Shown here: positions 12,318-58,204 of the stretch, in pieces | Layout: the number at the start of each line of letters is the position of its first letter | Position numbering within the stretch: the first letter of the stretch is position 1 | Assembly (NCBI GenBank): GCA_963728205.1 | Contig: CAVSIV010000006.1 | Coordinates: 830,831-894,830 of the forward strand | Source of the DNA: an uncultured Chloroflexia bacterium | GTDB lineage: Bacteria > Chloroflexota > Dehalococcoidia > UBA2979 | DNA: 64,000 bases | Reading direction: 5' to 3' | Notes under the pieces: generated by a model | What the model saw: only the letters and a program-made list of their open reading frames with translations | Told to the model about the DNA's origin: nothing | The model's database searches: none | Position numbers and translations under genes: made by a program

Positions 12318-12342
12318 CGCGGACCCGAGGTGCGACGTGAGC

Positions 12343-12986: not shown

Positions 12987-12993
12987 CGCGCAA

Positions 12994-13195: not shown

Positions 13196-13999
13196 CTACT
13201 TGACGACCAGCACGATCGTGCCGGCGGGAACGGTCGAGGGATACGTCGCGTTGAACTCGGCGTTCACGAACGCCGGGGCGCCGGGGATCAGCACCTGGGC
13301 CTTGCCGTTGACGAAGACCGTCACCGAGATGCCCTGCGCCGCGAGCGTCGCGGACGCCATCTGCTGCACGGTGCCGCCCTGCCAGATCACGGGGTTGACG
13401 CCGACCGTGTCGATCGGGCGGTCGAACTTGCCGAGCAGGTTGACCGCAAGCGCGCTCAGGCTCGTGACGTCGGCGACGTCGTTCGTGCCGTTGGAGACCG
13501 TCGCGTCGCCGTCGAGCGAGATGCCGATCGTGCCGGAGGCGGTGTCGGCGGTGTCGGGCTGCACCTTGATGCCGGACAGCATGAGCGTGTCACCGGCGGC
13601 GGAGCCGGTGGTCACGTTCAGCACGATCTCGTGCTGCGTCGGGGTGACGGTGCCGGTGGCGGCGCCGCCGATCTGGAGCGTGCCGGTGCCGCCGACGGTG
13701 TAGGTGACCGGGGCGGAGGTGTCGAACGACCAGCCGGTCGGGGCCTCGATCTTGATGCCGTTGGCGGTGGTCATCTCGTTGCCGGTCGCCGTGATCGTGA
13801 TCGGCGTGAGCGCCGTGAAGGTGTTGGCGCCGGTCGCGGCGTTGGTCGTCGGCTGGATCACGGCGTCGGCGCGCGTGGTCACCGTCGGCGCCGCGGCCTG
13901 CGCGAGGCCGGGCGCGGCCGCGAGGAGCATGCCGGCCGAGGCCGCGAGTGCAGCGATGGCGGCGCCTCCGCGCCAGGTCCAGGTGCGCAGTCTGCTCAT
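13196..13999 (-). CDS. secreted surface protein with the shared C-terminal module
   Basis: 267 aa from ATG 13997-13999 (RBS GGAGAGGA). Signal peptide GGAAIAALAASAGMLLAAAPGLAQA. It ends GKFDRPIDTVGVNPVIWQGG ... VLIPGAPAFVNAEFNATYPSTVPAGTIVLVVK. Confidence 0.85.
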   Translation of the reverse strand: MSRLRTWTWRGGAAIAALAASAGMLLAAAPGLAQAAAPTVTTRADAVIQPTTNAATGANTFTALTPITITATGNEMTTANGIKIEAPTGWSFDTSAPVTYTVGGTGTLQIGGAATGTVTPTQHEIVLNVTTGSAAGDTLMLSGIKVQPDTADTASGTIGISLDGDATVSNGTNDVADVTSLSALAVNLLGKFDRPIDTVGVNPVIWQGGTVQQMASATLAAQGISVTVFVNGKAQVLIPGAPAFVNAEFNATYPSTVPAGTIVLVVK

Positions 14000-18883: not shown

Positions 18884-19120
18884 TATAGCGAACAGACCGA
18901 CGGCGCTCGCCGTTCTTACACTCGGTCGCGGCGAACTTTCCGAGAGCTTGAAGATTTAGCAAGGTTTTCCCCGCGGAACGTGGCTTCTCGGTCGAAATCG
19001 GGGTTCTCCCGACGTTGGGGCGGGCGGATACCCGCTATTTTTCCGGGGACGGTCGGGCGACCTTCAGGGGCTGGCTTTGGGCGCGCATGGACTCGCGTGC
19101 CCGGAACGCACCGGGACAAG

Positions 19121-21760
<2,640 letters not shown>

Positions 21761-37360: not shown

Positions 37361-39274
37361 CTACCCGGCCGGCGGCACTCGCGGCACGGGATACGCGGCC
37401 GCGAGGTCGGTCCCGGTGCACGCGAACGGCTCGGCAACGACCGCGCCCCCGCCGGCCGTCACCTGGACGCCGCGCGTGCTCGACACGATGCCCATCCCGG
37501 GGAGATCGGACGCGATGTTCGCGTAGGCAATCCGCTTCGCGCCGGCGGATGCAACGTGCACGAGGTGCCGCGGGCTCGACGTGCTCGTGCGTGCGACGTA
37601 GACGTTTGCGACATCGAGCGCGGACTCCCCGCGCATCTTGAACGGCGTCGCCCGGTCCACGTAGGCGTTCACGACCCGCATGGCGGTCCCGTCCCCGAGG
37701 TCGGCGAAGGCGTCGGCGAGCGCGGACCCGTACCCGCCGAAGACGCTGACGCGGGAGCGGCAGCCTTCGACCAGCGAGACGCCGGTGTGCGCGCCGCGGA
37801 CCGAGAAGTTGCGCAGCACGATCTCGCCGCCCGCGCCGGCCGCCTCGCAGACGATGCCCGCCGAGGGCCGCCCGCCGTCCACCGCGACAAGGTCGGATGC
37901 GGTGCAGCCGTCGAGCTCGACGCGGAAGTCGCCGTCGCCGTTACGCGCGAGGATCTTCCACCCGGCGCTTGCGCCGCTCACGCTGCAGCCGACGTAGCGC
38001 GTCCCGGCGGCGCGGTCCTGGAAGCCGGTCGGAATGATGCCGCCGCCGGGCGGCGTCCGCGGCTCGCGAACCCGGCAGTTCACGAACGTCGTGTCAATCC
38101 CGGACTCGTGCGTGTCGAACGGCTCGCCTCGCGCGTTCACCGAGAGCGAGTCGTGGATCAGCGTCGCGATCGGCTCGCCGTAGAACGCCCAGCGGTCCGC
38201 CTCGAACGCCGCGTCCTTCGGATAGCCCGTCGTGAAGAGGTGGCGCGCCCCTTCGCCCTGGACGCGGATGGTGGCGGCGTAGTTGGCGCCGTACGCCTCG
38301 ACGCCGTAGCCGTAGGCGCCGATCGCGGGCGCGTTCACGATGTCGTCCGTGGTCACGTCGACGTCCGCCATCCAGCAATTGGCGAGCTTCAGCCCCGTGT
38401 CCCACGCGGAGTGGATGTGGCAATCGGCGACCTGCGGCCGCACGAGCGACTGGAGCGACACCGCGCCGGCGCCGTCCCGCGCGATCGCCTCGTCGTGCAC
38501 ATCGCCGTCGGCCTCGATCCAGAGCGAGCGCAGTGAGACCGGCTGGCGCTCGAGGACGCGGACGAGTGGCCGCCCCGCGTAGCGGAGACGAAGCAGGCCG
38601 TGCACCAGGACGTGTCGCTTCGAAGCGTCGACCGCACGAACCTCGAAGAGCTCGCCCGCATAGTTTCGCGCCCCGGCGGCGCCGTATGGGCGCGCGTCGT
38701 CCGAGTAAATCTTGCAGATGTCGTTGACGTGAAACGCCGACGCGTCGTCGACGGTCAGCCGAGTGACACGTGACTGCACGTCGAGATCGACCTCGTCGAT
38801 CGCGACGACGGGCCGGGGGTCCGAGGCGGCGCCGGCGAACGCAAAGGCGGGCGCTCCGGGGCCGTAGCGGATGCGGGTAGGCGGCCCCTGGCCCTCGATG
38901 CGCGTCGGCCGGTCCACCGGCACCGACACGCCGTGCGGGAAGATGAACGTGCCTTCGCTCAGCAGGACGCGCCCCCCGGCGGGCGGCAGGGCGGCGATCG
39001 CGCGCGCCACCTGCGCATCGTCGTTCGCGCCGTCGCAGCGGTAGTCCGCCGATGACCGGCTGCGCGCGCCGGCATCGTGCGCGGCGACGGTCACGGCGGC
39101 GCGAACGTCCTGCGAGCAGCCGTCGCCTGCGAGCGACGGATCGGGAACCACCGCTGCGCCGGCGGGGCCGGCAGCGAGCGCGGCGAGCGCCGGCGCGACC
39201 GCCGCGGCGGCGGCGGCGCGGCGAAGCAGCGCACGGCGCGTCACGGCGGTGCGGGGCTGCGGCCGGGATGGCAT
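37361..39274 (-). CDS. Tat-secreted right-handed beta-helix (pectate-lyase-fold) protein
   Basis: 637 aa from ATG 39272-39274 (RBS GGGGGAGGGAG). Twin-arginine signal TRRALLRRAAAAAAVAPALAALAAGPAGA. It has repetitive short beta-strand turns with many G/N/D/C positions. Confidence 0.75.
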   Translation of the reverse strand: MPSRPQPRTAVTRRALLRRAAAAAAVAPALAALAAGPAGAAVVPDPSLAGDGCSQDVRAAVTVAAHDAGARSRSSADYRCDGANDDAQVARAIAALPPAGGRVLLSEGTFIFPHGVSVPVDRPTRIEGQGPPTRIRYGPGAPAFAFAGAASDPRPVVAIDEVDLDVQSRVTRLTVDDASAFHVNDICKIYSDDARPYGAAGARNYAGELFEVRAVDASKRHVLVHGLLRLRYAGRPLVRVLERQPVSLRSLWIEADGDVHDEAIARDGAGAVSLQSLVRPQVADCHIHSAWDTGLKLANCWMADVDVTTDDIVNAPAIGAYGYGVEAYGANYAATIRVQGEGARHLFTTGYPKDAAFEADRWAFYGEPIATLIHDSLSVNARGEPFDTHESGIDTTFVNCRVREPRTPPGGGIIPTGFQDRAAGTRYVGCSVSGASAGWKILARNGDGDFRVELDGCTASDLVAVDGGRPSAGIVCEAAGAGGEIVLRNFSVRGAHTGVSLVEGCRSRVSVFGGYGSALADAFADLGDGTAMRVVNAYVDRATPFKMRGESALDVANVYVARTSTSSPRHLVHVASAGAKRIAYANIASDLPGMGIVSSTRGVQVTAGGGAVVAEPFACTGTDLAAAYPVPRVPPAG

Positions 39275-39438
39275 GACGGGTCGCTCCCTCCCCCGCGCCT
39301 TCCCCGGGCGCGGCGGGGCGCGGGGCGCGGTGCTCCTCGACGGTACGCGCCGGACAATCGTGCAGTCAGCGACGGGCTGCGGGGCAGTCGGGAAGACCCG
39401 CGTCGCGCGTCGCGCCGCGGCGGGCGCGCAGCCGCAGA

Positions 39439-41214
39439 TTACCGGAGCGCGACGAAGGCGCCGACCACACCCGACGCCACCCCCGAGACCCGCGCCCGTA
39501 CCCCGATCTGCCCGCCCACCGCGGACGGGGCCTCGCGCGGCGGCGGCTGCGCGCGCCGCTGCCGCGTCGTCGCAGCTGCTCGGTGCGGCGACGACGTCGT
39601 CGATCCCGTCCCACGCGGTTGGGGCGGCGAGGAGGGGGGCGACGAGGGATCCGCGCCGCGCGAGCCCGCGGAGGCGCGCCGCTGCGCCGCGGGGCGCGTG
39701 GCTTCCGAGGCGTTCGAGCCGCTCGAGGCGATCGAGCCGGTCGGCTTCGCTGCGCCCGCTGCGTGTCCGTGAGCGGCGGCTGCCTGCGGCGCGGGGGACG
39801 CGCCGGACCGGCTCGCGGAAGCGCCGCGCTCGCTCGCCGCGATGGCGCGGGAGCGGCCCGTGGCCGGCGAGCCGGCGGCCACGGGAGGCGCCCCGCTCTG
39901 CGGCGCGGGCGACACGGCGTGCGCGTACCGTCCTGCCGGGACCGACGTCCGGCTCGCCGTCGCGGGCGTCGCGGGGCTGGAGCGCCCTGCCGGCACCGCC
40001 GCGACGTCGCGGTCGGGCGTTGTGCGCGGGGCGTCGGAACCGCGCGCGCCCGGTGCCGACGGCGGCCACCAGGCCACCGGAGAGGCAGGCGATCCGAAGG
40101 AGCCGGGCCCCCGCACCGCCGGCGCAGCCTCGCCTCCAGGCGGTCCGGAGCGGGCAAGGCCGCCCGCCGTCACGGCCGCGCCGGCCGCGCCGGCCGCGCC
40201 GGCCGCGCCGGCCGCGGGCGTCGCTTCGTGGACGCGCGGGTGGCGCGGGCGTTCGCCGACCCACTCGCGACGCGCGGGACCGCCCAGCGCGACGAGCGTG
40301 AGGACGGCGAACGCCAGCATCCCGCCGAGCCCGGCCGCGTGCTTCGCGAACGAGCCGGCTCCGCGGGCGACGGCCGGCCGTCGCAACGCGGCATCGCGCC
40401 CCGACCGGCGCAGCGCGCGCAGCAGTCCGCCGGGCCGGCGGATCGCGCCGAGCAGCGCGCTCGCCGCGAGGCCCGTGCGGCGGCGGTCCTCCGGGGCGCG
40501 CATCAACGACAGCCAGCCGTCGCACGCCGCGCACTCCGCGGCGTGGCGCGCGAGCGTCGTGGACTCGCGCTCCGAGAGCGTGCCCGCCGCGAGCTCCGAG
40601 AGTCGGTGGAGCGCCTGCGTGCAGCCCACCTCGATTCCCTCGGCCCGGAGGTACGTGTCCGCGAGACGTCGGCGCGCGCGTGAGGTCAGCGTCTCCGCGG
40701 CGCCGCGCGAGACGCCGAGCGTCCGGCCAATCGCCTCGTAGGAGCGCCCCTCCAGCTCGCGCATCACGAGCGCGCGGCGCGAGCGCTCGGGCAGCAGGGA
40801 GAGCGCGACCCAGACCCGAGCGCGCTCGTCGAGCGAGAGCACCCGCTCGCCGGGGTCCGAGGCATGGATGTCGCGCGGCTGGTGCCGGGGTTGCCCGCCG
40901 TCGTCGCGATCGAGCGACACGAGCTGCGGACGGCGGCGGCGCTTGCGCAGGAAGTCGAACGCTGCGTTCAACGAGAGCCGGGACAGCCAGGATCGGAAGC
41001 GATCGGGATGCTCGAGGCCGTGCAGCGACAGCGCGACGAGGAGCCAGACCTCCTGGGCGACGTCGGCGGCGTCGTCGGGATTGCGCAGGGGACGCAGCAG
41101 GAGGTGTCGCACGTACTCGTCGTACTCGTCGACGAGTCGCTCGAAGGCGCCGGGCTCGCCATCCCGCGCGCGACGCACCCACGCACCCACATCGAACTCC
41201 ACGGGGTCGTGCAT
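39439..41214 (-). CDS. second ECF sigma factor fused to a zf-HC2 anti-sigma domain, TM helix and low-complexity tail (ECF52-like)
   Basis: 591 aa from ATG 41212-41214. Region 2 (LLLRPLRNPDDAADVAQEVWLLV) and region 4 (LPERSRRALVMRELEGRSYEAIGRTLGVSRGAAETLTSRARRRL) are followed by HAAECAACDGWLSLM, TM helix GGMLAFAVLTLVALGG, a P/A/S/G-rich tail, and a terminal hydrophobic stretch GVASGVVGAFVALR. Confidence 0.85.
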   Translation of the reverse strand: MHDPVEFDVGAWVRRARDGEPGAFERLVDEYDEYVRHLLLRPLRNPDDAADVAQEVWLLVALSLHGLEHPDRFRSWLSRLSLNAAFDFLRKRRRRPQLVSLDRDDGGQPRHQPRDIHASDPGERVLSLDERARVWVALSLLPERSRRALVMRELEGRSYEAIGRTLGVSRGAAETLTSRARRRLADTYLRAEGIEVGCTQALHRLSELAAGTLSERESTTLARHAAECAACDGWLSLMRAPEDRRRTGLAASALLGAIRRPGGLLRALRRSGRDAALRRPAVARGAGSFAKHAAGLGGMLAFAVLTLVALGGPARREWVGERPRHPRVHEATPAAGAAGAAGAAGAAVTAGGLARSGPPGGEAAPAVRGPGSFGSPASPVAWWPPSAPGARGSDAPRTTPDRDVAAVPAGRSSPATPATASRTSVPAGRYAHAVSPAPQSGAPPVAAGSPATGRSRAIAASERGASASRSGASPAPQAAAAHGHAAGAAKPTGSIASSGSNASEATRPAAQRRASAGSRGADPSSPPSSPPQPRGTGSTTSSPHRAAATTRQRRAQPPPREAPSAVGGQIGVRARVSGVASGVVGAFVALR

Positions 41215-41577
41215 CGCGCGCTGCTCTCTTCCCCCGGCAGCGCGGGAGGCTAGCACGCCCGCCCGGCCCCCGCGAGACCGCGGTGGGAGGTCGGTCGACG
41301 CGGCGGGACGCGCGTGAATCCGCGTGCCGGCGGGATGCGAGGGAACTGCAAGGCGCCGACCGGCGATGCGTGTAAGTCGGCCGAGCGACTTCACGTCTCA
41401 TTAAGCAGAGCGAATCGGCGCGGTTCGATCCGCTCGTCGCACCCCGGTCCCCGAGACGACGGCAACGACGTGGAGCCGGCGCGTGTTTCGCGCGCTCGGA
41501 GGGTTTCGCGTTCCCGACGCCGCCGGTGATCAAGCGGGGTGGGCAGCAAGCAGTGGGTCGGTGGAAAGGAGGTGAGG

Positions 41578-41805
41578 ATGCATCGTTGGCGACGGCTGCT
41601 TGCGATCGGTTCGGTACCGGTCGCGGGCCTGATCCTCGTCACGAGCGCGATCGCGGCGAGACCGCCGGACAACCAGAAGGTCTCTGTCTGCCACGTGACG
41701 GGACAGGGCACGTTCAGGGAGATCTCCGTCTCCGAGCGAGCCCTTCCCGCCCTCGAGGCGCACGGCGACGTCGTGGCGAACGAGTTCGGGTACTGCCCGA
41801 GCTAA
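41578..41805 (+). CDS. small secreted protein (two Cys)
   Basis: 75 aa from ATG 41578, preceded by the strongest RBS in the window (AAGGAGGTGA). Signal peptide MHRWRRLLAIGSVPVAGLILVTSAIAA. Confidence 0.7.
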   Translation: MHRWRRLLAIGSVPVAGLILVTSAIAARPPDNQKVSVCHVTGQGTFREISVSERALPALEAHGDVVANEFGYCPS

Positions 41806-41947
41806 GGCTCGGGTGAGATTCGCGAGCGACCGGCGCCGGTCCGCCCGCCCGATGGCGTGGCCCCATCATCGGCGGCCGGCGGCGACCGACCGACGGTGCC
41901 GGTCGCTCGCAGCCACCTGCAACGCAGGGCACAGGGAGGAGACGCGG

Positions 41948-43024
41948 GTGCGGCTTATCGTCACCATTCCCGCGAAGGACGAGAGCGAGAACATCGCGGA
42001 GGTGATCCGCGAGATCCCCCGCACCATCCCGGGCGTGTCGTCCGTGAGCGTGCTCGTCGTCGACGACGGCTCGGGAGACGGCACTGCCGACGTCGCGATG
42101 CGCGCCGGGGCAGACCGCGTCGTCCGCAACAAGCGGAACATGGGGCTCGCCTACAGCTTTCAGCGCGCGCTCGGCGAGGCGCTGGGCATGGGCGCCGACG
42201 TCATCGTCAACACCGACGGCGACAACCACTACGACCAGGCGGCGATCCCGCGGCTGGTTGCGCCCGTCGTGGCCGGCGAGGCCGACATCGTGATCGGCAG
42301 CCGCGTGCTCGACGACGTCGACATGCCGATGGCGAACCGCTACGGCAACCGCCTCGCAAACGCGGTGATGCAGCGCCTTCTCGCGCTGCCCGGGGTCGAC
42401 GTCTCGACGGGCTTCCGGGCGTACTCGCGCGAGGCGGCGCTGCGCCTCGTGGTGATGTCTCGCCACACGTACACCCACGAGTCGCTGCTCTCCGCGATCG
42501 ATCAGCAGCTCGTGATCGCGAACCTGCCGATTCCCGCGCGCACGGTCAGTCGCCCGTCGCGCCTGATCAGCAGCGTGCCCCGCCACATCTACCGCGCGGG
42601 CACCACGATCCTGCGCTCGTTCCTGCTGTACCGGCCGCTCGCGGTCTTCCTGCTCGTCGGCGCGCTGCTGGTTGGCGCGAGCGGGTTGCTCGGCCTGCGC
42701 TTCGCCGGGCACTGGCTTGCCGGCGACGGCAGCGGACATGTCCAGTCGCTGCTCCTCGCGCTCGGGCTGCTCTACACCGGGGGCCAGGTGATCCTCCTCG
42801 GGCTCCTGGCGGATGCGCTGCGCGCCAACCGCGTGGTCGCGCAGGAAGTGCTGCGCAATACCCGTCTCATGGTCGCGGGCGAGCACCGGACCGCCCTCCG
42901 GGCGCGGGCGAATGCCGCCCGCGCGAACGGCGCGTCCGCGAACGGCGCACCCGTCGCCGGTGAGGCGATTGCCGAGGCGGCCATCGCGCTCTCTGCGCGG
43001 AACCTTCGTGCGCCCCGACCGTAG
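41948..43024 (+). CDS. GT2-family glycosyltransferase, polyprenyl-phosphate sugar synthase-like (DPM1/GtrB type)
   Basis: 358 aa from GTG 41948 (RBS GGGAGGAG). VTIPAKDESENI, VLVVDDGSGDGT and NTDGDNHYD (DxD) are followed by two C-terminal TM helices. Confidence 0.88.
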   Translation: MRLIVTIPAKDESENIAEVIREIPRTIPGVSSVSVLVVDDGSGDGTADVAMRAGADRVVRNKRNMGLAYSFQRALGEALGMGADVIVNTDGDNHYDQAAIPRLVAPVVAGEADIVIGSRVLDDVDMPMANRYGNRLANAVMQRLLALPGVDVSTGFRAYSREAALRLVVMSRHTYTHESLLSAIDQQLVIANLPIPARTVSRPSRLISSVPRHIYRAGTTILRSFLLYRPLAVFLLVGALLVGASGLLGLRFAGHWLAGDGSGHVQSLLLALGLLYTGGQVILLGLLADALRANRVVAQEVLRNTRLMVAGEHRTALRARANAARANGASANGAPVAGEAIAEAAIALSARNLRAPRP

Positions 43025-43157
43025 CGTCGCGCCGGCGGACCGGCGCGACGCGCTCGGCGAAGCGGCGGGCGCGCCCGATGGTGCCCGCGCGCCGCGCGCC
43101 GCCGCGGCGGTGTGGGTCGACCGGCGCGTCTCGTTGATCGCGGCAGCGCGCGGCGGC

Positions 43158-45272
43158 ATGCCCGCCCCTGCCGGCGCACACGGGCGGGGCAAGCCGCCGT
43201 GGCACGTGCTCCGCGCGGCGCGGACGGGCACGACGGCGCCCGCCATCGGCGCGGCGGTGCTCGTCAGCGCCGCGCTCGCCGCCTGGATGGCTCCCGCCGC
43301 CGCCGCGAGGACCGGCGCGCTCGCCGCCGCGGCGGCCGGCGCGGGACTCGCCCTCCTGGGCGCAAGCGACGTCCGGCCACCGTCGGTGCTGACGGCCGGC
43401 GCGCTCGCCCTCGTGACCGCGGGCGCGACGCTCACGCTCGGCGCGCTCGCGCTCGCGATCGCGCGACTGCCGATCGCGCCCGCCACCGTGCTCGCGATCG
43501 CCGCGCTCCCGGTGGTCGCCGCCGTCGCCGTCCACCGGCGCGGCCGAGCGCATGCCGCCGATCGCGCGGCGCCCGCATCGCAGTCCGACACCGCGTCACC
43601 CGACGGCGGCGAGCTGCCATCCAGGGCTCAGCTCGTCGTCGCGACGGTCGTCACCGCCGCGGTGGCGCTGCTGGTCCTCGGGCCGGGACCGGAGGCACTG
43701 GCTCTCATCGGTTACGCCGGATTGTTCGCCTGGCGGCTCGGGTTCTCGGGCGGCTCGCTCCGGGGTCGCGGGTCGGGAGTGGCCGGGGAGCCGGCCACTC
43801 CCGACCCGCGCGAGACGCGTCTCCGGCGGCTCGCCGCGCACGCCGACGTGCTCCCCATCGCCCTCGTCGCGCTCGTGCTCGGGACGCGGCTCGTGCCGTT
43901 CCTGCGCTCGGCCGTGCCCCTGGGGTACGACACGGGCCTGTACCGCGCCGTGCAGCGCGACTTCGCCGCCGCCCTTCCGGCGCTGCCGGCCTTCCCGCCG
44001 CACGCGTGGGCCGCCGCGCAGCCCCCGGGGCTGTTCCTGCTCTCCGACCTCCTGCACCTGGCCGGGGTCCCGGCCGACGCCGCGCTGTGGGGCCTGCTGG
44101 TGCTCGCGCAACTCGTCGGCGGCGCCGGGATCTGGCTGCTCGCAAACGACACCGCCGGCCGGCGCGCCGCCCACTGGGCGCTCGTGCTCTTCGCGCTCTC
44201 CACCGTCCAGTACACGATCTTCTACGACGTCTACTTCAAGCAGGTCCTCGCACTGGCGCTGCTCCCATACGTCCTGTGGCTGTGGCGCCGCGAGTCCTGG
44301 CTCGCGGTGCCGGTCGGCGCGTTCCTCGCCGCCACGCACAACATGAGCTTCCTGCTGCTGGGGCTCGTCCTGCTCTCCGACACCCTCTGGCTCGAGCGCC
44401 ATCCCGGGGGGCCGCGCGCGGCCGTCCGGGCGCTGCTCGCCCGCCGCTACCAGCTGGTCGCGGGCGGCTGCGTGCTGGTGCTCGGACTCGCGGGCTACGC
44501 CTTCGCGCCCCGCGCGATCGGCGACTTTCTCTCACCCGACGTCGCAGCGACGCTCGCCCGCTTCGGCGTGGGCGCACAGGCGTCCGCCGGCAGCCTGCGC
44601 GTCGACCCCCGTTACTACGTCGCGCTCGTCCTGCCGCTCGTCCCGTTCGCCGCCCTCGCATGCGCCGCGCGCTGGCGAAACGCGCGGCTGCGACTCGTGC
44701 TGCTGTGGGCGGCGTGGGCCGGCGTGTTCGCGTTCGGCAACCTGATCTTCGCGCGCCGGTTCATCGCCTCGTTCGATCCGGCGTTCGTGATGCTCGCCGC
44801 GGTCGCCCTGGGCGCCCTCACCGCCGGGCCGCTCGCCGGTGCCGCACGGCCGTTCGCGGCGATCGCCGTGCTGAGCGCGGTGCTGCTGCTCGGCCGCACC
44901 ATGCGCGACCTGCGCCCGGCGATCGCGATCGACGACCTCCGCGACCTGCAGACGGCGAGCCATGCGATCCCGGCCGATGCCTACCTGATGTCGATCGAGG
45001 GATCTGATTCCGCGTGGGTGCGCGGGTACGGGGCGCACGACACGATCGCGCCCGGGCTCCTGGGCTACGACCGCTGGTCCGAGAGCCAGTGGGCCACCTT
45101 CTGGGCACCGCCATCGCCCGACGCGCGCTACGCGCTGCTCGCGATGTACGACCACCCGATCTACGTCTTCATGCGGGCCGACCGAACCAACCCCGGCATC
45201 GTCGAGGACCCGCGGTTCGAGCGCGTGACGCGGACTCTCTGGCGGTACGTCCCGCCGGTGGGACAGCGATGA
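43158..45272 (+). CDS. polytopic membrane protein, GT-C-like glycosyltransferase (tentative)
   Basis: About 704 aa; the start is uncertain and ATG 43158 was chosen. It has more than 10 hydrophobic helices and a soluble C-terminal domain. It lies directly after the GT2 gene. Confidence 0.65.
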   Translation: MPAPAGAHGRGKPPWHVLRAARTGTTAPAIGAAVLVSAALAAWMAPAAAARTGALAAAAAGAGLALLGASDVRPPSVLTAGALALVTAGATLTLGALALAIARLPIAPATVLAIAALPVVAAVAVHRRGRAHAADRAAPASQSDTASPDGGELPSRAQLVVATVVTAAVALLVLGPGPEALALIGYAGLFAWRLGFSGGSLRGRGSGVAGEPATPDPRETRLRRLAAHADVLPIALVALVLGTRLVPFLRSAVPLGYDTGLYRAVQRDFAAALPALPAFPPHAWAAAQPPGLFLLSDLLHLAGVPADAALWGLLVLAQLVGGAGIWLLANDTAGRRAAHWALVLFALSTVQYTIFYDVYFKQVLALALLPYVLWLWRRESWLAVPVGAFLAATHNMSFLLLGLVLLSDTLWLERHPGGPRAAVRALLARRYQLVAGGCVLVLGLAGYAFAPRAIGDFLSPDVAATLARFGVGAQASAGSLRVDPRYYVALVLPLVPFAALACAARWRNARLRLVLLWAAWAGVFAFGNLIFARRFIASFDPAFVMLAAVALGALTAGPLAGAARPFAAIAVLSAVLLLGRTMRDLRPAIAIDDLRDLQTASHAIPADAYLMSIEGSDSAWVRGYGAHDTIAPGLLGYDRWSESQWATFWAPPSPDARYALLAMYDHPIYVFMRADRTNPGIVEDPRFERVTRTLWRYVPPVGQR

Positions 45273-45333
45273 CACGCGCACGCAAGGGCCGGTGCAGCGG
45301 GCGCGACCCCGTCGTCGCGTGCGAAGGAGCAGC

Positions 45334-46722
45334 ATGATGCGCATCGCCGTCGTGGGACAGGGATACGTGGGCGTAACCGCCGCCGCGTGCCTCGCCGAGG
45401 CAGGGCACCACGTGGTCGGGATCGAGAGCGATCTCGGTCGCCTGCGGCTGCTCCGGCACGGGCGGCCGCCGGTGTACGAGCCGGGGCTCGCGGAGCTGCT
45501 CGGCGCTACGATGCGCTCCGGGCGCCTGACCTTCCGGGCGTCGCTCTCCGGCATCGCCGTTCCCATGGACGCCGCGATCATCGCGGTCGGCTCGCCGCCG
45601 CTGCCCTCGGGCGGCGCCGACCTGCGCCAGGTGACCACCGCCATCGCGGACGTGGCCGCGATGCGCCCGGCACCCCGACTGATCCTCGTGAAGAGCACGG
45701 TGCCGCCCGGGACGAGCGAACGGCTGCTCGCGGAAGCGGACCCCGCGCTGGACCTCGCGCGACGGTACGTCGTCAGTCCCGAGTTCCTCGCCCTCGGGTC
45801 CGCGCTACGCGACTGGCGCACGCCCAGCCGCATCGTGGTCGGGCTGCACGAGCAAGCGCTGATGCCTGAGCTGCGTGAGCTGTACCGCGGCATCGATGCC
45901 CCGTGGGTGGTGACCGACCCGACCACGGCAGAGATGGCGAAGTACGCCAGCAACGCCTTTCTTGCGACCAAGATCAGCTTCATGAACGAGATCGCGAACC
46001 TCTGCGAGGAGGTAGGCGGGAACGTCGACGACGTCGCGTTCGGGATGTCGCTCGACCCCCGCATCGGCCGCGGCTACCTGCGGCCGGGCGTCGGCTACGG
46101 AGGGTCGTGCTTCCCCAAGGACACACGGGCGCTCGCGCACCTCTCGAACCTCGCCGGCCACGCGATGCCGCTGCTCGACGCGGTGATCACGGTGAACAAC
46201 GCGCAGCGCCTGCGGGTCGTGCGCGCGGTGCGCGCGGGTCTGCGCGAGCCGGGGGGCGTGGTCGCCGTGCTGGGCCTCGCCTTCAAGCCGGGGACCGACG
46301 ACGTGCGCGAAGCGCCGAGCCTCACGGTCATCCCGGAGCTCGCCTCGCTCGGCTTCGACGTGCGCGCGTGGGATCCGGTGGTGGACCCGAGGGCGGCGGC
46401 ACGCGCCCTCCCCGGCATCGCACGCGCCGAGACGCTCGAGGCGGCGCTCGCCGGGGCCTCCGCGGCGGTCGTGCTCACCGAGTGGCAGGAGATCCGGGAC
46501 GCTCCATGGGAACAGCTGGTCCCGACCATGCGGCCGCCCCGCCTGGTCGTCGACGGGCGCAATTGCCTGGACGCCGCGCGGCTGCGCGCGCTGACCGATG
46601 CGTATCGCGGCGTCGGCCGGTCCGCGCCGCACCCCGTGCGCGCGACGGACCGCGCCGCTCGCGCCGGCACGCAGGCACGCGGGCGCACGGCAAACGCCCT
46701 CGTCGCGGCGCTCGGCGACTGA
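45334..46722 (+). CDS. ugd: UDP-glucose/GDP-mannose 6-dehydrogenase family protein
   Basis: 462 aa from ATG 45334 (RBS AAGGAG). MMRIAVVGQGYVGVTAAACLA is the Rossmann motif. GYGGSCFPKD contains the catalytic Cys. Confidence 0.92.
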   Translation: MMRIAVVGQGYVGVTAAACLAEAGHHVVGIESDLGRLRLLRHGRPPVYEPGLAELLGATMRSGRLTFRASLSGIAVPMDAAIIAVGSPPLPSGGADLRQVTTAIADVAAMRPAPRLILVKSTVPPGTSERLLAEADPALDLARRYVVSPEFLALGSALRDWRTPSRIVVGLHEQALMPELRELYRGIDAPWVVTDPTTAEMAKYASNAFLATKISFMNEIANLCEEVGGNVDDVAFGMSLDPRIGRGYLRPGVGYGGSCFPKDTRALAHLSNLAGHAMPLLDAVITVNNAQRLRVVRAVRAGLREPGGVVAVLGLAFKPGTDDVREAPSLTVIPELASLGFDVRAWDPVVDPRAAARALPGIARAETLEAALAGASAAVVLTEWQEIRDAPWEQLVPTMRPPRLVVDGRNCLDAARLRALTDAYRGVGRSAPHPVRATDRAARAGTQARGRTANALVAALGD

Positions 46723-46742
46723 CGAGCGACGTGGAGCACGCC

Positions 46743-48932
46743 ATGACGAGCAAGCCGGTCGCCAATCGCCGAGCGTCCGCACCGGCGTCCACGCCGGTCG
46801 GTGTGACGCTGCTCGGCCCGCTGCCTCCGCTGCGGGCAATCAGCGCCTACACGGGGGCGCTGGTCGCCGCCCTGGCCGCGCATCCCGACGTCGCCCTCGA
46901 CGTGGTCTCGTTCGGGGATCTCTACCCCACCGCGCTCTATCCGGGCGGAGAGCCCGTCAATCGGGACGCGCGCCCCTATGCGCCTCCTCCCGGTGTCCGG
47001 CTGCGGCGCCGGCTCCACTGGTGGAACCCGCTGGGCTGGATTCTGTCCGGCTGCACGGCGCGCGGGAGCATCCTCCATGCGCAGTGGTGGACGTACGCGC
47101 TCGCCCCGCTCTACCTCGTCGTGCTGGCCCTCGCGCGACTGCGCGGGAAGCGCGTGATCCTCACCGTGCACAACGTGAAGCCGCACGAAGGTGGACGGCT
47201 CCGTGCGTGGCTGCACCGCTGCGTCCTGCCGCTCGCACACGTCGTGATCGTGCACTCGGAGGCGAATCGCGCGGCGATGGCGCGGCTCACCCGCGCCCCG
47301 GTGTGCGTCGTGCCGCACGGATCGCTGACGCTGCGCTCCGACCTCGCGGGCTATGTGCGCGACCAGCGCGCGGCCGCGCGCGGGCGGCTGGGGCTCCCGG
47401 CCGACGCCGAGGTCGTGCTGCTCTTCGGCCACCTCCGCCCCTACAAGGGGCTGGACGTGCTCCTCGACGCGTTCTGCGGCGTGCGGGCGCGCCGGCCGCA
47501 TGCGCGGCTGCTCGTCGTCGGGCAGGACTGGGGGACCGCCGGAGCCGCCGAAGCGCACATCGCGGCGCTCGGGCTCGCGGACGCGGTGACGCTTCGGCTC
47601 GGCTTCGCAAGCGACAATCGGCTCGCCGACGCACTGGCGGCCAGCGACGTCGTCGCCTTCCCGTACACGCACTTCGACGGCCAGAGCGGCGCCGCGAGCC
47701 TGGCGATCGCGGCGGGCCTGCCGCTGGTCGTATCCCGGCTCGGGGGCCTGCCCGACCTCGTCGACGAGCCCGCGGTCGTGGTCGAGCCCGGGTCGGATCG
47801 CGACCTCGCGCGCGCCCTCGTCCGGGTGCTCGCGGACGACGCGCTGCGCGAACGGCTGCGCGCGGCCGCGCTCACCCGCGCCGCGGCGCTCGGCTGGGAC
47901 GGCGTCGCGGAGCGCACGGTCGCGGTCTACGCGGAGGCCGTCGCGCCGCGAGCCGGCCGCGCCCGCCGCTTCCCGGTGCGGTTGCAGCTGCGCGCGCTGA
48001 TCCCGCTGCTGGTCAGCGCCGTCGCGTTCGCGGCCATCGCGATCGGCGGCGTGGACGTGGCGCGGAGCGCGCACTACCTGGTCGCCGCGAATCCGTCCCT
48101 CCTGGTCGCGGCGGGCCTGGCCGTGATCGCGATGCGGGTGCTGCGCGCGTGGCGATGGGGGTTGCTCTTCCCGGTCGGCGGCCTGCCGCGTCCGCCGCTC
48201 GGCCGGCAGATCGGCCTCGTGCTCGTATCGGACTCCGTCAACAGCGTGCTGCCGCGCGCGGCCACGACGGCCGGCCGCGCGTGGCTGGGCAGCTACGTGC
48301 ATGCCGCGCCGCTCGCCCGCGTGGCGGTGACGATCGCGGTCGAGCTCGCGCTGGACCTGGCGACCGCCGTCGCGCTGCTCGGCGTCGTGCTGCCGTTCCT
48401 GGTCATCGACGGCCGCGCGCCGGCGGCGGCGATCGCGGTCTGTGGGAGCGCCGCCGCGATCGCCCTCATCCGGATGGTCGCGCGCACCCGTCCGCGGCTG
48501 CCCGCCAGGCTCCCCGGCCCGGTGGCGCCCGTCGCTCACCGCCTCCGCGCGGCGCTGACGCCGGCGCCTCAATCGGGCGCGAGCATGCGCGCGGCGATGG
48601 TCGCGAGCGTCGCCGTCCACCTGGCGCGCGTGGCGGCGTTTCTCCTCGTCGCCGCCGCGCTCGGCGGATTGCCCCGATCCGGCGTGGCGCTGGCGGCCAT
48701 CGCGTCCGCACCGAGCCAGCTGGTGCCGTTCACGTTCGGCGGCCTGGGCGTGCGCGAGGCGATCCTGATTGCCGTGCTCTCCCGCTTCGGAGTGGCGCCG
48801 GAGGTAAGCGTCGCGCTCGGCCTCACCGTGTTTCTCGTCTCATCGGGCTCGGCGCTCCTCGGGATCGTCGCCGTGCCGTTCATGTGGAAGGCACGCGTCC
48901 GCGAGCCCGGGCTCGAAAGCGAGGCGGCATGA
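46743..48932 (+). CDS. GT4-type glycosyltransferase fused to a flippase-like (LPG_synthase_TM/UPF0104) membrane domain
   Basis: 729 aa. The GT-B part ends with the DVVAFPYTHFDGQSGAASLAIAAGLPLVVS (EX7E-like) region. About 330 aa with 8 or more TM helices follow. Confidence 0.8.
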   Translation: MTSKPVANRRASAPASTPVGVTLLGPLPPLRAISAYTGALVAALAAHPDVALDVVSFGDLYPTALYPGGEPVNRDARPYAPPPGVRLRRRLHWWNPLGWILSGCTARGSILHAQWWTYALAPLYLVVLALARLRGKRVILTVHNVKPHEGGRLRAWLHRCVLPLAHVVIVHSEANRAAMARLTRAPVCVVPHGSLTLRSDLAGYVRDQRAAARGRLGLPADAEVVLLFGHLRPYKGLDVLLDAFCGVRARRPHARLLVVGQDWGTAGAAEAHIAALGLADAVTLRLGFASDNRLADALAASDVVAFPYTHFDGQSGAASLAIAAGLPLVVSRLGGLPDLVDEPAVVVEPGSDRDLARALVRVLADDALRERLRAAALTRAAALGWDGVAERTVAVYAEAVAPRAGRARRFPVRLQLRALIPLLVSAVAFAAIAIGGVDVARSAHYLVAANPSLLVAAGLAVIAMRVLRAWRWGLLFPVGGLPRPPLGRQIGLVLVSDSVNSVLPRAATTAGRAWLGSYVHAAPLARVAVTIAVELALDLATAVALLGVVLPFLVIDGRAPAAAIAVCGSAAAIALIRMVARTRPRLPARLPGPVAPVAHRLRAALTPAPQSGASMRAAMVASVAVHLARVAAFLLVAAALGGLPRSGVALAAIASAPSQLVPFTFGGLGVREAILIAVLSRFGVAPEVSVALGLTVFLVSSGSALLGIVAVPFMWKARVREPGLESEAA

Positions 48933-51794
48933 CCGCCGTTCTCGGTCGCGCCGCGGAGCCGGCGGCCGCGACAACGCCGTGGTCGTCGCGGCCGCTCGCG
49001 GTCGCGCGGCAACGCCCGCGCGCGATCCTGGCAGGCGCGTGCATCGTCCTCGGCCTCGGCGCGCTCCTGCTCTACGCCTGGGCGATGGCGTACGGATCGG
49101 ACGCGGGTGCGCCGACGTTCAACTCCCCGCGCGCGAACAGCAACTTCGTGATCGCGCAGCACGTCGCCGCCGGCGGCGGCTTCGGGGTCCCGCTGGCCCA
49201 CTACGGCGAGCTGCCCCCGGAGATCGCGCCCGCGCTCACCCCTCGCGACTCGGCTCGCCTCGGCGATCGCGTGGTGCCCAAGACGTTCCTCTCCGAGGTG
49301 GTGCTCCTCGCCGGCGCGCTGCGCGTCGGGGACTGGGCTGCGCTGCTGCTCACCCCGGTGCTCGGCGCCGCGGCGGTCGTCGGCGTCTGCGTGCTCGGCT
49401 GGTCCGTGGCCGGGCGACGCGGCGTAGGCGCCGCGATCGTCGGCGGCGGCTCGGCGGCGATCTTCGCGGTCTGGCCGGCGCAGTGGATCGTAGAGAGCCG
49501 CGCGTACGAGCCGGGCGACGCGCTCGCCCTGTGCGCGTTCGTCCTCGGCGTCGTCGCGCTGTGGCCGGTGCTCGCGGGCGAGCGCGTCTCGCCGCGGCGG
49601 GCGGCGGCGGTGGGGGCGCTGTTCGGGCTCTCGATCGCGACCCGCTATCCGAACCTGCTGATCACCGCCATCCCCCTGTTGCTCCTCCTCCTGTCGCCGG
49701 GCACCGCGAGACGGGCGATCGTCTTCGTGGCGGCGTTCGTGCCGCTCGCGGTGCTCGGCCTGCTCGTGCTGGCGGGCAACCTCGTCGTCTACGGATCGCC
49801 GCTGACCACCGGATACGCGCTGGCCGTCGACGAGCTCCGGCAGTCGGTTCCCATCGACTCGGCGGGGTTCTTCGGCTTCAACCTGCAGGCGTTCGGCCAG
49901 TACATGCACGCCTACCTGCTCAACCCGGTGCTGGGCGGCCCGCTCCTCGCCGGCGTCGCCGTGGCCCTGGTGCTGCTCGTGCGCCGGTGGCGCGAGCCCG
50001 ACGGCGAGGCCCTCTACGCCGCGATCGCCGTCTGGACGCTGCTGGTGCTGACCGTCGTATACGGCGGCCAGGAGGCACACGGCGTGGATGGGTTCGTCGT
50101 GAACAGCTCGTTCATGCGGTACCTGCTCCCGGCGGCGGCGCTGCTCATCCCGCCGGTCGTCCTCGCGGTCACCCGGATGGTGGCGGGCGCGCTGCGGTCG
50201 GGACGCGGGCGCGGGATGCTCGCCGCGACGGCGGCGCTCGCCCTGCTCGCGAGCGTCCTGGTGGGGAGCGTCGAGGTCGCGGTCGGCCAGGCGGGGGGCA
50301 TCCGGGACCGCCGCGGCGTGGTGAGCCGGCTCGAGCAGGCGCGAACCGAGAATCGTCGCCGCGACCGACGACCGCTCGCTCATCATCACCCGCACCTACG
50401 ACAAGGTGCTCTACCCGCAGCGCGCCGCGCTCGTCGCGACCGCGCTGATCCGCTCCGACACGGCCATCGAAAAGGGCGCCTCCGTCACGTGGAGGCTCGT
50501 CCCCGACGACGAGCAGCTCGCGCTGGACGCCCAGATGATCGACGCGCGGAAGTACCGGCTGTTCCTGCTCAACGACGGCATCGTCTCCGACGTCGACGCG
50601 CTCCAGTCCCGGCTCGCCGCCGAGGGCCTCGTGCTCGAGCGCGTCTCCAGCGCGCCGTCCGTCCACCTCTATGAGCTGCGGCCCGCGGCGCTCGCCGGAC
50701 CCGTCGCAACCGGGACGCTGCCGGGGGACGGCCGCTCTCTCGACACGTGGGAAGCGCCCGACGGCACGCGCGTCATGGTCGTCGGCCACGACGCATCGCC
50801 GCACCTGACCGTGGTTGCGCGCCGGGGAGCCCGGCTCGTCCACGAGGCCGACTACGGGCTGCCGGGCGTCGCGCGCGGCGTGCAGTCGTGGGTGGCCCCC
50901 GACGGCGGACGGCTGGTTGCCGTCGCGCACGTCGGCAGCCCCGACTTCACGCTGCTGCACTGGGACGGGACGGCCCTCTCGGAGGTCGCGGCGTTCAACC
51001 TGCCCGGCGACGGGCGTGCCGTGGAGACGTGGGAACAGGGGGGCGCCCGCCTGATCGCCGTGGGCCACTACCGCAGCCCGGGTCTCACGCTGCTGCGATG
51101 GGACGGCCACGCGCTGACGGCCGCCGGAAGCGCAGCGATGCCCGGCATCGTGATCGGCATCGACTCGTGGGACGCGCGGGACGGCACGCGCCGCCTCGCG
51201 GTCACGCACGACGGCGCCCCCTACCTCAGCCTGCTGAGCTGGGATGGGGCGGCCTTTACGCAGCAGCCGTCCGTCGATCCGCTGCCGGGACCGGGCCGCG
51301 GCGTGACGAGCTGGGCGGACGGCGACGCGCGCCTCGTCGCGGTCGGATCCATGGGCGACCCGGCGTTCACCCTGCTGCGATGGCGGGGCTCGCAGGCGAC
51401 GACCCTGGGGACGTTCGCGCTTCCCGGCACCGCGTGGGTGGTCCGCAGCTGGGCGGACGCCGGCGATCGTGTGATCGCCGTCGGCCACGACGGCAGCCCG
51501 CACCTCACGCTGCTGCGATGGGACGGCTCCCGGCTCAGCAGCGACGGCAGCTTCGCGCTGCCGGGCACCGCGCTGGGGATGCGGACCTGGACCGCGCCGG
51601 TGGGTCGGCTGATCGCCGTCGCGCACGAGCGGCCGCCCTACCTCACGCTGGTGCGCGCCGTCGGACCGAACGGGCCGGCCGCGCACGCGCAGTCGCCGAC
51701 CGGGTGCGCGCGCGACGGCCCCTGCGCCCCGATTCCGGCGACGCCGTCGCCGTCCGCATCGATCCAGACCCGCCCGCAGGAGGAGCCCCGATGA
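48929..51794 (+). pseudogene. ArnT/PMT-like GT-C membrane glycosyltransferase continuous with a 7-repeat beta-propeller domain, interrupted by a +1 frameshift near 50350
   Basis: ATG 48929 (ATGA overlap). The membrane part stays in frame to about 50350, after which that frame becomes Arg-rich nonsense up to 50674. The next frame (ORF 50406-51794) already encodes IVAATDDRSLIITRTYDK with no start codon upstream of its GTG. It then has seven repeats of about 45 aa (50718-51665), such as LPGDGRAVETWEQGGARLIAVGHYRSPGLTLLRWDG. Confidence 0.65.
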
Positions 51795-52549
51795 TGGAAC
51801 TGACCGCGCCGCCCCGCGTCGCCGCCCTGAGCAACGAGGACTACGATGCCAGCGCCACCGTGCGCGACATGCGCAGCCTCGAGCGCTGCCTCGACTACAT
51901 CCGCGACCACGCGGACCACCCGCTGAATAGCCTCCTCGACCTCGGCTGCGGCCGCGGCTGGCTGACGCTGCACGTCGCCTCGCGCCTCGGCATCGAGGCC
52001 ATGGCCGGCATCGACCGGGACGCCGAGCGGCTGGCCGTCGCCAGCGAGCGGGGCATCCGCGCCTGGAAGCTCGACCTCGAGCACCACGCCTACCCGGTCG
52101 AGATGTGCTCGCAGGACGTCGTCTGCACCTTCGGAATGTTCGAGCACATCGTGTACTACGACCACGTGCTCAGCGAGGTGCGCCGCGTACTCCGCCCGGG
52201 GGGCTGGCTGCTGATCGCGATGCCGAACCTGGGCAGCTACCTGAACCGGCTCTCGTTGCTCGTCGGGGCGCAGCCACGGAACGTCGAGATCTCGAAGGAA
52301 GTCCCGGCCGGCATCATGCGCGCGTACAAGGGCCGGCTGAACGACGACGGCAGACCGATCGGGCACATCCACACCGCCACGCTGTCGGCAATGCGCGAGG
52401 TGCTCGCCCACCACGGCTTCGACACGCAGGTCGTGCAGAGCTCCAGCCCGGACTTCGGCAGCCGGCTCGTCCGGATCGCCAATCAGACGCTCGGCCGGTT
52501 CCCATCGCTCGCGCGCCGCTACATCATCGTCGCCCGGCGGCGGGACTAG
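51791..52549 (+). CDS. class I SAM-dependent methyltransferase
   Basis: 252 aa (ATGA overlap, RBS AGGAGGAG). LLDLGCGRGWLT is SAM motif I. VLRPGGWLLIAMPN is motif III. Confidence 0.88.
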   Translation: MMELTAPPRVAALSNEDYDASATVRDMRSLERCLDYIRDHADHPLNSLLDLGCGRGWLTLHVASRLGIEAMAGIDRDAERLAVASERGIRAWKLDLEHHAYPVEMCSQDVVCTFGMFEHIVYYDHVLSEVRRVLRPGGWLLIAMPNLGSYLNRLSLLVGAQPRNVEISKEVPAGIMRAYKGRLNDDGRPIGHIHTATLSAMREVLAHHGFDTQVVQSSSPDFGSRLVRIANQTLGRFPSLARRYIIVARRRD

Positions 52550-57562: not shown

Positions 57563-58204
57563 ATGAGACGCCTGCGACCGAACCTGTTGGCGGGCCTCGC
57601 GGCCCTCGCAGGCGCGTGCCTGCTCGCGGCGTGCGCGAGCGGCGCGGGCGGGTCGGCGACGCCGGCCGGCCGGGCAACAGCGGGCGCGACGGGCACGACG
57701 ATCCCCAGCGCGACGCCGGCGCCGTCTGTCGTGGCGACGGCGTCGGGCGGCGGCAGCGCGACCGCCGTGAGCGCGACGGCGCTGCCCGGCCGCACCGTCA
57801 CGCCGCAGCCGCCGGGTACGACAGCGACGCCCGCGCCCACGCCCACGCTCCCGCCCGTCACGCCGACACCGCTGGCGACGCCGACACCGCCCGCGACCGG
57901 CGCCGGCGTCTACGGGCTGATCACGGTGGGGCCGACCTGCCCGGTCGAGCGCGCCGACCAGCCGTGCCCCCCGCGCGCCTACGACGGCACGCTGTCGTTC
58001 CAGGACGCGTCGGGGCACGAGGCCGCGCGCGTGACCGCGGGGTCCGACGGGCAGTACGCGGTGAAGCTCGCCGCCGGCACGTACCACGTCGTCCCGATGA
58101 CGACGGGCGGCGGCATGCTGCCGCATGGCAACCCCACGGACGTCACGGTGACGAGCGGCCAGTGGACGCGACTCGACGTCATCTACGACAGCGGAATCCG
58201 GTAG
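57563..58204 (+). CDS. lipoprotein with T/P-rich linker and C-terminal beta-sandwich (carboxypeptidase-regulatory-like) domain
   Basis: 213 aa. Lipobox LAGACLLAAC, a TP-rich linker, then GVYGLITVGPTCP ... GTYHVVP. Confidence 0.75.
   Translation: MRRLRPNLLAGLAALAGACLLAACASGAGGSATPAGRATAGATGTTIPSATPAPSVVATASGGGSATAVSATALPGRTVTPQPPGTTATPAPTPTLPPVTPTPLATPTPPATGAGVYGLITVGPTCPVERADQPCPPRAYDGTLSFQDASGHEAARVTAGSDGQYAVKLAAGTYHVVPMTTGGGMLPHGNPTDVTVTSGQWTRLDVIYDSGIR

Follow-up and report, generated by a model that had tools for sequence, protein, structure and literature searches.

The window analysed here is a stretch of 64,000 nucleotides from an uncultured Chloroflexia bacterium (assembly GCA_963728205.1, contig CAVSIV010000006.1, positions 830,831 to 894,830 of the forward strand), and our subject is a cluster of seven genes at positions 41578-52549 of this window. 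The genes were called from third-position GC frame plots and translations, at a window G+C content of about 73%. They all lie on the + strand, with short gaps or overlaps between them, and form one operon. The encoded proteins are a small secreted protein, a family 2 glycosyltransferase (GT2), a polytopic membrane protein (GTC1), a nucleoside-diphosphate (NDP) sugar 6-dehydrogenase (Ugd), a GT4 glycosyltransferase fused to an LPG_synthase_TM (PplT) domain, a second polytopic protein that ends in a propeller (GTC2), and a class I S-adenosylmethionine-dependent methyltransferase. We consider it probable that the operon serves a lipid-linked glycosylation outside the cytoplasmic membrane of a single-membrane Chloroflexota bacterium, organised as synthase, flippase and GT-C enzymes and built from unusually divergent parts. 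A preliminary description of the window had arrived at the same coordinates and gene list, and these are confirmed by third-position GC, Pfam and NCBIfam. The identities it gave to GT2, Ugd, GT4, the LPG_synthase_TM domain and the methyltransferase are likewise borne out by Pfam or NCBIfam scores above the cut-offs.

Genes of the operon

The first gene (41578-41805) encodes a protein of 75 amino acids with a signal peptide and two cysteines, and its ATG is directly preceded by AAGGAGGTGA. The mature part of about 48 amino acids, which includes the two cysteines, shows a conserved CH...VS...PAH..HGD...CP pattern and has no match in Pfam or NCBIfam. We propose that this protein, which heads the operon and to which homology assigns no role, may be a dedicated partner of the enzymes encoded downstream. 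The GT2 gene (41948-43024) follows after a gap of 142 nt, with a GTG start behind GGGAGGAG; longer starts are possible at 41813 and 41852. Its product matches the Pfam family Glycos_transf_2 (2.9e-16, 60 bits against a cut-off of 23.3). The top NCBIfam match is AglJ (2.5e-30), and the scores of this and all other NCBIfam equivalog models lie under their cut-offs. Comparison with the PDB returned the Pyrococcus Dol-P-Man synthase (5mlz, 3e-9) and ArnC (9hwj, 1.7e-7 over residues 3-291), and the translation contains the motifs VVDDGSGDG and TDGD as well as two C-terminal membrane helices. GT2 is thus a predicted member of the polyprenyl-phosphate glycosyltransferases of the DPMS/GtrB/ArnC/AglJ type. 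Its junction with the GTC1 gene (43008-45272) is either an overlap of 17 nt or a gap of 1 nt.

Ugd (45334-46722), 61 nt behind GTC1, comprises three UDPG_MGDP_dh Pfam domains, reaches 377.7 bits with the subfamily model TIGR03026 (cut-off 189.8) and carries the catalytic-cysteine motif GGSCFPKD. The equivalog models score under their cut-offs, with 356 versus 700 bits for TuaD and 320 versus 670 bits for AglM. The enzyme is most likely a UDP-glucose 6-dehydrogenase, with the substrate presumed from the family. After another 20 nt follows the gene of the fusion protein (46743-48932, 729 amino acids), both of whose Pfam domains score above cut-off. Residues 1 to about 400 form the GT4 domain (Glycos_transf_1, 6.3e-21), with MshA, PimB' and PimA as PDB neighbours, and residues from about 412 to 715 form the LPG_synthase_TM domain (4.4e-18; 66.2 bits, cut-off 33.4; 3-294 of the 302 model positions). 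The latter, which contains membrane helices, is assigned to the MprF-type flippase domains (PF03706), from which a flippase activity is predicted. No such fusion was found in 300 sampled genomes of the phylum. We also considered that the fusion might be an artefact and judged this unlikely, as it would need an insertion within the linker of about 60 nt, and the junction is in frame with a third-position GC of about 1.0 that is continuous across it. The last gene (51791-52549) encodes the methyltransferase (252 amino acids; Methyltransf_11, _23 and _25 above cut-off), in which no signal peptide or membrane helix was seen by reading the translation, without a predictor. ATGA overlaps connect the fusion gene with GTC2, and GTC2 with the methyltransferase gene.

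GTC1 and GTC2 as putative GT-C enzymes

GTC2 is encoded in two frames, the first of which (48929-50345) holds the membrane core (residues 21-453). Relatives of GTC2 connect it to known families: a match to PMT_2 was obtained for 29 of 41 sequences (best 4.4e-13), to PMT for three, to GT22 for two and to GT87 for one. In the PDB, the family profile found STT3A/STT3B (1.5e-5) and PIG-M, and weakly TMEM260 (E 0.054, at a default of 0.001); ArnT is absent from its matches. P105-R106-D107 in the first outer loop is invariant in the 41 sequences (D107 at 49247-49249), and a later outer loop contains a conserved YGSPLTTGY. The AlphaFold model (predicted local distance difference test, pLDDT, of 70) shows about 11 membrane helices. 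Because Arg-rich loops alternate and lie on one side of the membrane, the C-terminal part of the protein is predicted to lie outside. On this profile evidence, GTC2 is a predicted divergent member of the GT-C superfamily with a presumed transferase activity.

GTC1 (754 amino acids) is far more isolated, with one homolog among 5.8 billion proteins. Besides the proteins of the window itself, word-indexed searches returned only this homolog and a pair of distant PMT_2 proteins, and pattern scans of genome and metagenome contigs detected three and six relatives of GTC2, respectively, and none of GTC1. In 400 genomes of the phylum, the GTC1 profile solely retrieved PTPS_related, YfhO and PMT_2 proteins (E about 1e-5). 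The alignment by hhalign with PTPS_related reached probabilities of 93.8% and 95.7% (E 1.8e-7 and 9e-9, the latter over 148 columns) across residues 344-501, which we take as the divergent GT-C core; that of GTC1 with the GTC2 family reached 67%. A conserved PLGYDTGLYR precedes the core, and a soluble domain of about 120 amino acids forms the C-terminus. GTC1 is accordingly classed as a putative divergent GT-C protein of the PTPS_related/YfhO-like kind, again with a presumed activity. The preliminary description had named a failure against GT39 and GT83 profiles as refuting its reading, and both proteins do fail them: neither has a match to PMT (PF02366) or MIR at E ≤ 10, with R-A at the DE position of GTC2, and neither matches PMT_2 directly. 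By these profiles, GTC1 and GTC2 belong to neither GT39 nor GT83.

Outer domains of GTC2

The second frame of GTC2 (50346-51794) encodes three elements. The first is a conserved extracytoplasmic alpha/beta domain (residues 483-585; 50376-50684), and the alignment with a 545-amino-acid homolog reaches residue 585. The second is a propeller (residues 597-912; 50718-51665), and the third and last is a P/S/T-rich tail. The propeller comprises seven repeats of 36-48 amino acids, six of them with 46-48 and the last one shortened, which follow the pattern LPG..G..sW...g.RliAVgH..sP.lTLLrWDG. AlphaFold arranges them as 28 strands in seven blades (pLDDT 70-85), so that the seven-bladed propeller named in the preliminary description stands on both repeats and model. 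Foldseek compared this model with the seven-bladed EPTP domain of LGI1 (TM-score 0.70) and with the Ralstonia lectin RSL, which showed the highest identity (21-25%, E about 3e-7) and is six-bladed versus seven blades here. The propeller itself has no direct family match in Pfam (E ≤ 10) or by phmmer against the PDB, and the fucose-lectin-type model NF052355 of NCBIfam gave only E 0.32, which does not place the propeller among RSL-like lectins. We regard the resemblance to RSL, which is based on the predicted model, as only a lead.

A GT-C core combined with this propeller was found in none of the best 150 relatives, and the propeller in none of 30 related genomes. The fusion seems to be peculiar to this genome, and a GT-C protein with a propeller at its outer end has not yet been described. 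As a separate observation, the same repeat (..HTWE.G.DR.IAV.H..SP.FTLL.WDG..) occurs in P0005 and P0007 as N-terminal propellers of large surface proteins; proteins of this type carry Laminin_G_3 or GLUG domains, and the repeat is without a Pfam model.

A frame break within the GTC2 gene

The preliminary description had joined the GT-C protein to the propeller. The two are indeed domains of one conserved protein; they are not encoded in one open reading frame (ORF), however, and this break had been missed. The frame that starts at 48929 is open to 50674, yet the coding signal moves to the +1 frame near 50342-50350. The +1 frame contains a TGA at 50322-50324 and has its first start codon not before 50406. 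The break (50339-50351) corresponds to one extra base in GCGCGAACCGAGA, and a single four-base step (CGAA at 50342) restores a protein of 954 amino acids (P0001). The GTC2 profile matches this genome in two frames. In a 545-amino-acid homolog from an ENA metagenome contig (41% identity), the alignment runs without gaps through residues 66-585 and thus across the site, and an exhaustive HMMER search revealed about 100 proteins of 540-640 amino acids that cross it, all in one frame. Since homologs read continuously across the site, the break lies inside one conserved protein.

To see whether the assembly is prone to such errors, we scanned the third-position GC of the whole genome (4.1 Mb), which revealed at least 97 frame-switch junctions, 77 of 97 being +1 and 20 in the opposite direction. 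The inspected junctions split atpA (C6:1578960-1579040), groEL (C4:150990-151070), aceE (C4:214890-214960), phosphoketolase (C1:992150-992270) and a trehalose-synthase-like gene. The four junctions for which the DNA was read are +1 shifts, and the extra base could be pinpointed only in atpA, where one extra G separates GKDVLI from IYDDLSKHA. As the organism cannot live with a broken atpA, we interpret the junctions as insertion errors of the assembly. The same scan flagged a possible +1 switch elsewhere in the window, at 19132-20244 inside the + strand ORF 19097-21760.

On this comparison the break in GTC2 is very probably an assembly artefact, and the organism most likely makes one GTC2-propeller protein of 954 amino acids. 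Were the frameshift real, the gene would be a pseudogene in a decaying accessory cluster, yielding at most a protein of 581 amino acids with a nonsense tail that lacks the conserved outer domain and the propeller. The break is, after all, present in the deposited sequence, where the public gene call is the 581-amino-acid ORF; in 30 relatives no such cluster was detected, and the sole related cluster, L002 (see below), is full of frame breaks and carries an insertion sequence (IS) element. We nevertheless consider a pseudogene improbable, because third-position GC stays at 0.92-0.95 past the break with no sign of decay, the remaining genes of the cluster are all intact, and +1 breaks also split the essential atpA and groEL, with the 77 to 20 excess of this direction. 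Programmed +1 frameshifting, by which the gene could give either a short GT-C protein or the full GT-C-propeller protein, would agree with the direction of the shift and with an upstream frame that stays open for 330 nt past the site. It is nonetheless extremely improbable: the site has neither a stop codon nor a known slippery or hungry-codon motif, a Shine-Dalgarno-like stimulator was not noticed, the region stands in a single frame in all of about 100 relatives, and identical +1 breaks abound in the assembly. The one-base insertions may also explain the completeness estimate of 89% for this assembly, and readings of split genes, fusions or pseudogenes in it must allow for dozens of them.

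Recurrence of the module and distribution of the cluster

The preliminary description had suggested a check of the cluster's conservation, and the answer is mixed: the module recurs in a metagenome contig and in another Chloroflexota family, but not in 30 close relatives. The ENA metagenome contig L002 encodes GT4, Ugd, GT2 (76% identity), GTC1 (47%), a separate LPG_synthase_TM protein and GTC2 (40%). Its gene order differs, and it has no counterpart of the small protein, methyltransferase or propeller. L002 is the sole other cluster with both GTC1 and GTC2; its Ugd, GT4 and flippase genes are interrupted by frame breaks, and an IS element (rve, HTH_Tnp_1; 12137-13303) lies between GTC1 and the flippase gene. 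In the other family, four genomes encode homologs of the small protein (41-50% identity; 39-48% by tblastn), each directly followed by a GT2 (about 30% identity) and then a GT4. These loci are L046 (3998-10791; G135:C7), L047 (7559-14187; G039:C2), L048 and L049. In L046 and L047, Pfam identified as the next genes a polytopic protein of 730-790 amino acids (PMT_2 in L046), a polysaccharide pyruvyl transferase and LPG_synthase_TM; the L046 operon additionally includes a HAD hydrolase. The polytopic protein shows no orthology to GTC1 or GTC2, and we therefore conclude that the module is kept while individual components are replaced. Such a small secreted protein, accompanying the GT2-GT4-GT-C-flippase module in both lineages, has not yet been described.

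Other arrangements repeat the pairing of GT4 with GTC2. In the soil metagenome contig L011, the beginning of a GTC2-family gene is overlapped by a GT4 gene, and P0051 is a fusion of a GT-B domain with one of the GTC2 family. Also in L011 (1716-3506, -, and 4091-5991, +), a PQQ/BamB-like propeller protein adjoins the GT4/GTC2-family pair on the other strand. That the genes of the cluster work together is supported by these comparisons of gene content. The acid-adding enzyme is Ugd in this cluster and pyruvyl transferase in the other Chloroflexota family, and such different enzymes for the same kind of step therefore suggest an anionic glycan as the common product of both versions of the module. 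An involvement in SLH anchoring to a pyruvylated polymer was also considered and dropped, the SLH domain being found in none of the five carrier genomes and a pyruvyl transferase being missing from this genome (G000).

GTC1, GTC2 and the propeller were found in none of the 30 close relatives, which include three of the same genus, and neither full-length GTC2 orthologs nor GTC1 orthologs were detected in 400 sampled genomes of the phylum. As judged from this sampling, the cluster is an accessory island. The host belongs to the Chloroflexota, with a class similar to Dehalococcoidia, and an actinobacterial context was rejected with the help of genome kinship tables.

Genomic neighbourhood

The operon is preceded by a divergent intergenic region (41215-41577), the presumed promoter region, which separates it from an extracytoplasmic function (ECF) sigma factor gene on the - strand. 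Promoter, terminator and ECF-motif scans gave no result at the cluster, and no sigma-70-like site, terminator-like site or GGAAC-N15-19-CGTT site was detected in 41215-41577. The neighbouring gene (39439-41214, -), a candidate regulator of the glycosylation cluster, is a single ORF in which regions 2 and 4 of an ECF sigma factor occur together with a zf-HC2 anti-sigma domain, a single membrane helix and an extended outer tail rich in Ala, Pro, Ser and Gly. Either the sigma and anti-sigma factors are truly fused here, or an assembly insertion has joined two separate genes. Located 3' of the sigma gene (37361-39277, -) is the gene of a 638-amino-acid protein with a twin-arginine signal (RRALLRRAAAAAA) and without a Pfam match; the mechanically listed ORF of 1390 amino acids at 37361-41533 is more than one gene. 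Downstream, the operon faces convergent, unrelated genes (a class II aldolase, two SDRs, Crp and MFS).

Proposed pathway, acceptor and product

The cluster can be read as a compact parts list with a donor synthase, a GT4-fused flippase, two GT-C proteins, and a uronic-acid and a methyl step. Ugd would make UDP-glucuronic acid, the family being clear and the substrate presumed. GT2, by family resemblance, would load a sugar, maybe this uronic acid, onto polyprenyl phosphate at the inner face of the membrane. At the same face, the GT4 domain would make or extend a lipid-anchored primer, and the fused MprF-type domain would carry the lipid-linked sugar to the outer leaflet, as domain identity and precedent suggest for both. 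GTC1 and GTC2, placed in their superfamily by profiles, would then move sugars from the polyprenyl-phosphate donor to an acceptor outside, while the outward alpha/beta domain and the lectin-like propeller of GTC2 would probably hold the growing glycan or the acceptor. The methyltransferase may methylate the sugar or its carboxyl group. This general logic of a lipid-linked donor synthase, outside GT-C proteins, and uronic-acid and methyl steps had already been recognised in the preliminary description, and the profile evidence for GT2 and the GT-C proteins agrees with it. Most probably, the pathway yields a glycan that is acidic, methylated and anchored on a glycolipid (lipoglycan), or a wall glycopolymer. 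Two features of GT4, its fusion to a lipid-flippase domain and its recurrent association with the GTC2 family, lead us to favour a glycolipid or lipoglycan acceptor.

Several observations weigh against this proposal. By their own sequences, GTC1 and GTC2 have no match in Pfam (E ≤ 10), in NCBIfam (E ≤ 1) or by phmmer against the PDB. The link of GTC1 to GT-C spans only about 150 of its 754 residues, and its AlphaFold model, built from an input of two sequences, is unusable (pLDDT 36). The top 50 Foldseek matches of the full-length GTC2 model are all propellers, and none compares the membrane part with GT-C. Furthermore, the classical 'DE' position that follows Ser-Pro in loop 1 is no longer acidic in GTC2 and its nearest relatives (SPRANSNF), and catalysis would therefore rest on D107; distant relatives keep the acidic pair (SPDE in L012). 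The replacement of the usual acidic pair by an invariant Pro-Arg-Asp loop motif has not yet been described. Enzyme activities, donor sugar and acceptor are all inferred from sequence, and an accessory cluster that was not detected in 30 close relatives could be decaying.

Protein O-glycosylation is the alternative to be weighed for the acceptor. Here, GT-C enzymes would move the polyprenyl-phosphate sugar made by GT2 to Ser/Thr of secreted proteins, in parallel to Ppm1/Pmt, with threonine/proline (T/P)-rich surface proteins, the Ser/Pro-rich anti-sigma tail and the small operon protein as candidate acceptors. The preliminary description had framed the cluster in this way, after the protein O-mannosylation of actinobacteria. 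This framing is not supported, given a Chloroflexota host and GT-C proteins without the PMT match expected of GT39 and without a MIR domain. The GTC2 family does belong to the PMT_2 clan and its profile weakly matches the O-mannosyltransferase TMEM260; the small secreted protein with its conserved Val-Ser always heads the operon, and the adjacent, divergently encoded sigma/anti-sigma protein has a long Ser/Pro/Ala-rich outer tail. PMT_2-clan enzymes, however, act mostly on lipids and glycans, and the fusion of GT4 to a lipid flippase and the repeated GT4/GTC2-family coupling fit a lipid acceptor better. As to the acceptors, the window had been called rich in secreted proteins with T/P linkers. 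By the cut-off applied here, only two genes have clearly T/P-rich linkers (7760-9082, -, and about 57563-58204, +), both far from the cluster, and nothing ties the cluster to them. We consider O-glycosylation rather unlikely.

A more specific form of the lipid-linked pathway would be an undescribed uronic-acid lipoglycan or wall-linked glycan that is primed by the GT4-flippase protein, elongated by the two GT-C proteins and held by the propeller. In this detail the proposal is speculative, and we give it a small chance of being right. If true, the small disulfide protein, encoded first in the operons of two Chloroflexota lineages, would act outside the cytoplasm as a partner or carrier dedicated to the pathway, and the cluster could hint at a new family of envelope-glycan systems, perhaps one that supplies ligands for the surface-protein anchoring modules of the phylum. 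To our knowledge, there is almost no experimental work on envelope glycoconjugates of Chloroflexota.

Comparison with known systems

The proposed pathway shares features with several systems. In Rhizobium, RgtE makes bactoprenyl-phosphate galacturonic acid, the donor for the ArnT-like GT-C enzymes RgtA-D/F (as cited in PMC7663294). If the donor of our cluster is a uronic acid, as we infer, both systems would combine a polyprenyl-phosphate uronic acid with several GT-C proteins and depend on Ugd. Unlike here, the Rgt acceptors are lipid A and the lipopolysaccharide core, which are lacking in single-membrane Chloroflexota, and our cluster has no 4-epimerase. HexSDF of Clostridioides difficile (PMC10128005) likewise pairs a glycolipid-forming glycosyltransferase with an MprF-like flippase; it differs from this cluster in having neither GT-C proteins nor a polyprenyl-phosphate synthase. 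Fusions of GT-B and PplT have been listed for Chloroflexi (bioRxiv 10.1101/2022.03.11.483950), where they are catalogued and not characterised.

Assembly of lipomannan and lipoarabinomannan in Corynebacterineae uses PimA and PimB' (GT4) inside and Ppm1 as donor synthase, with GT-C mannosyl- and arabinosyltransferases outside, among them EmbC, a GT-C protein with a lectin-like C-terminal module (PMC3485146, PMC3044687). Our cluster resembles this pathway in its GT4 close to PimA/PimB', its polyprenyl-phosphate sugar synthase and its several GT-C proteins, and EmbC is a functional precedent for the carbohydrate-binding-like domain that GTC2 bears at its outer C-terminal end. C. glutamicum also has a lipomannan anchored on a glucuronic-acid glycerolipid. 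In contrast to these systems, our cluster encodes no orthologs of Mpt, Emb or Aft, and a propeller of seven blades takes the place of a carbohydrate-binding module as the appended domain; the genes form one operon, with the flippase fused to GT4, in another phylum.

The archaeal AglD consists of a GT2 and an MprF-like flippase domain and has PMT/STT3-like GT-C neighbours (Makarova et al. 2015, PMC5898192). The cluster likewise joins an MprF-type flippase domain to a glycosyltransferase beside GT-C genes, and differs in that the fused partner is GT-B (GT4) instead of GT-A and the host is bacterial. In the Agl pathway of Haloferax, which includes AglJ, AglM and AglP, the glycan contains a uronic acid and receives a methyl group. 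Here too, the best NCBIfam match of GT2 is AglJ, Ugd matches AglM, and a uronic-acid and a methyl step are present; the equivalog scores, however, are far under the cut-offs, and the cluster is without an AglB/STT3 ortholog.

A similar overall logic is that of the three-component bactoprenol-linked systems, i.e., GtrB/GtrA/Gtr(type) of enterobacterial phages and CsbB/GtcA/YfhO of teichoic-acid glycosylation in Firmicutes. In these systems, and as proposed for our cluster, polyprenyl phosphate is loaded with a sugar by a GT2, the product crosses the membrane by means of a flippase, and a GT-C enzyme passes the sugar on at the outer side. The only detectable relatives of GTC1 match the YfhO and PTPS_related families. 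Unlike in these systems, the flippase is an MprF-type (PF03706) domain fused to GT4 and not a small GtrA/GtcA protein, and the set is extended by a second GT-C protein, Ugd, a methyltransferase and a small secreted protein in a Chloroflexota host.

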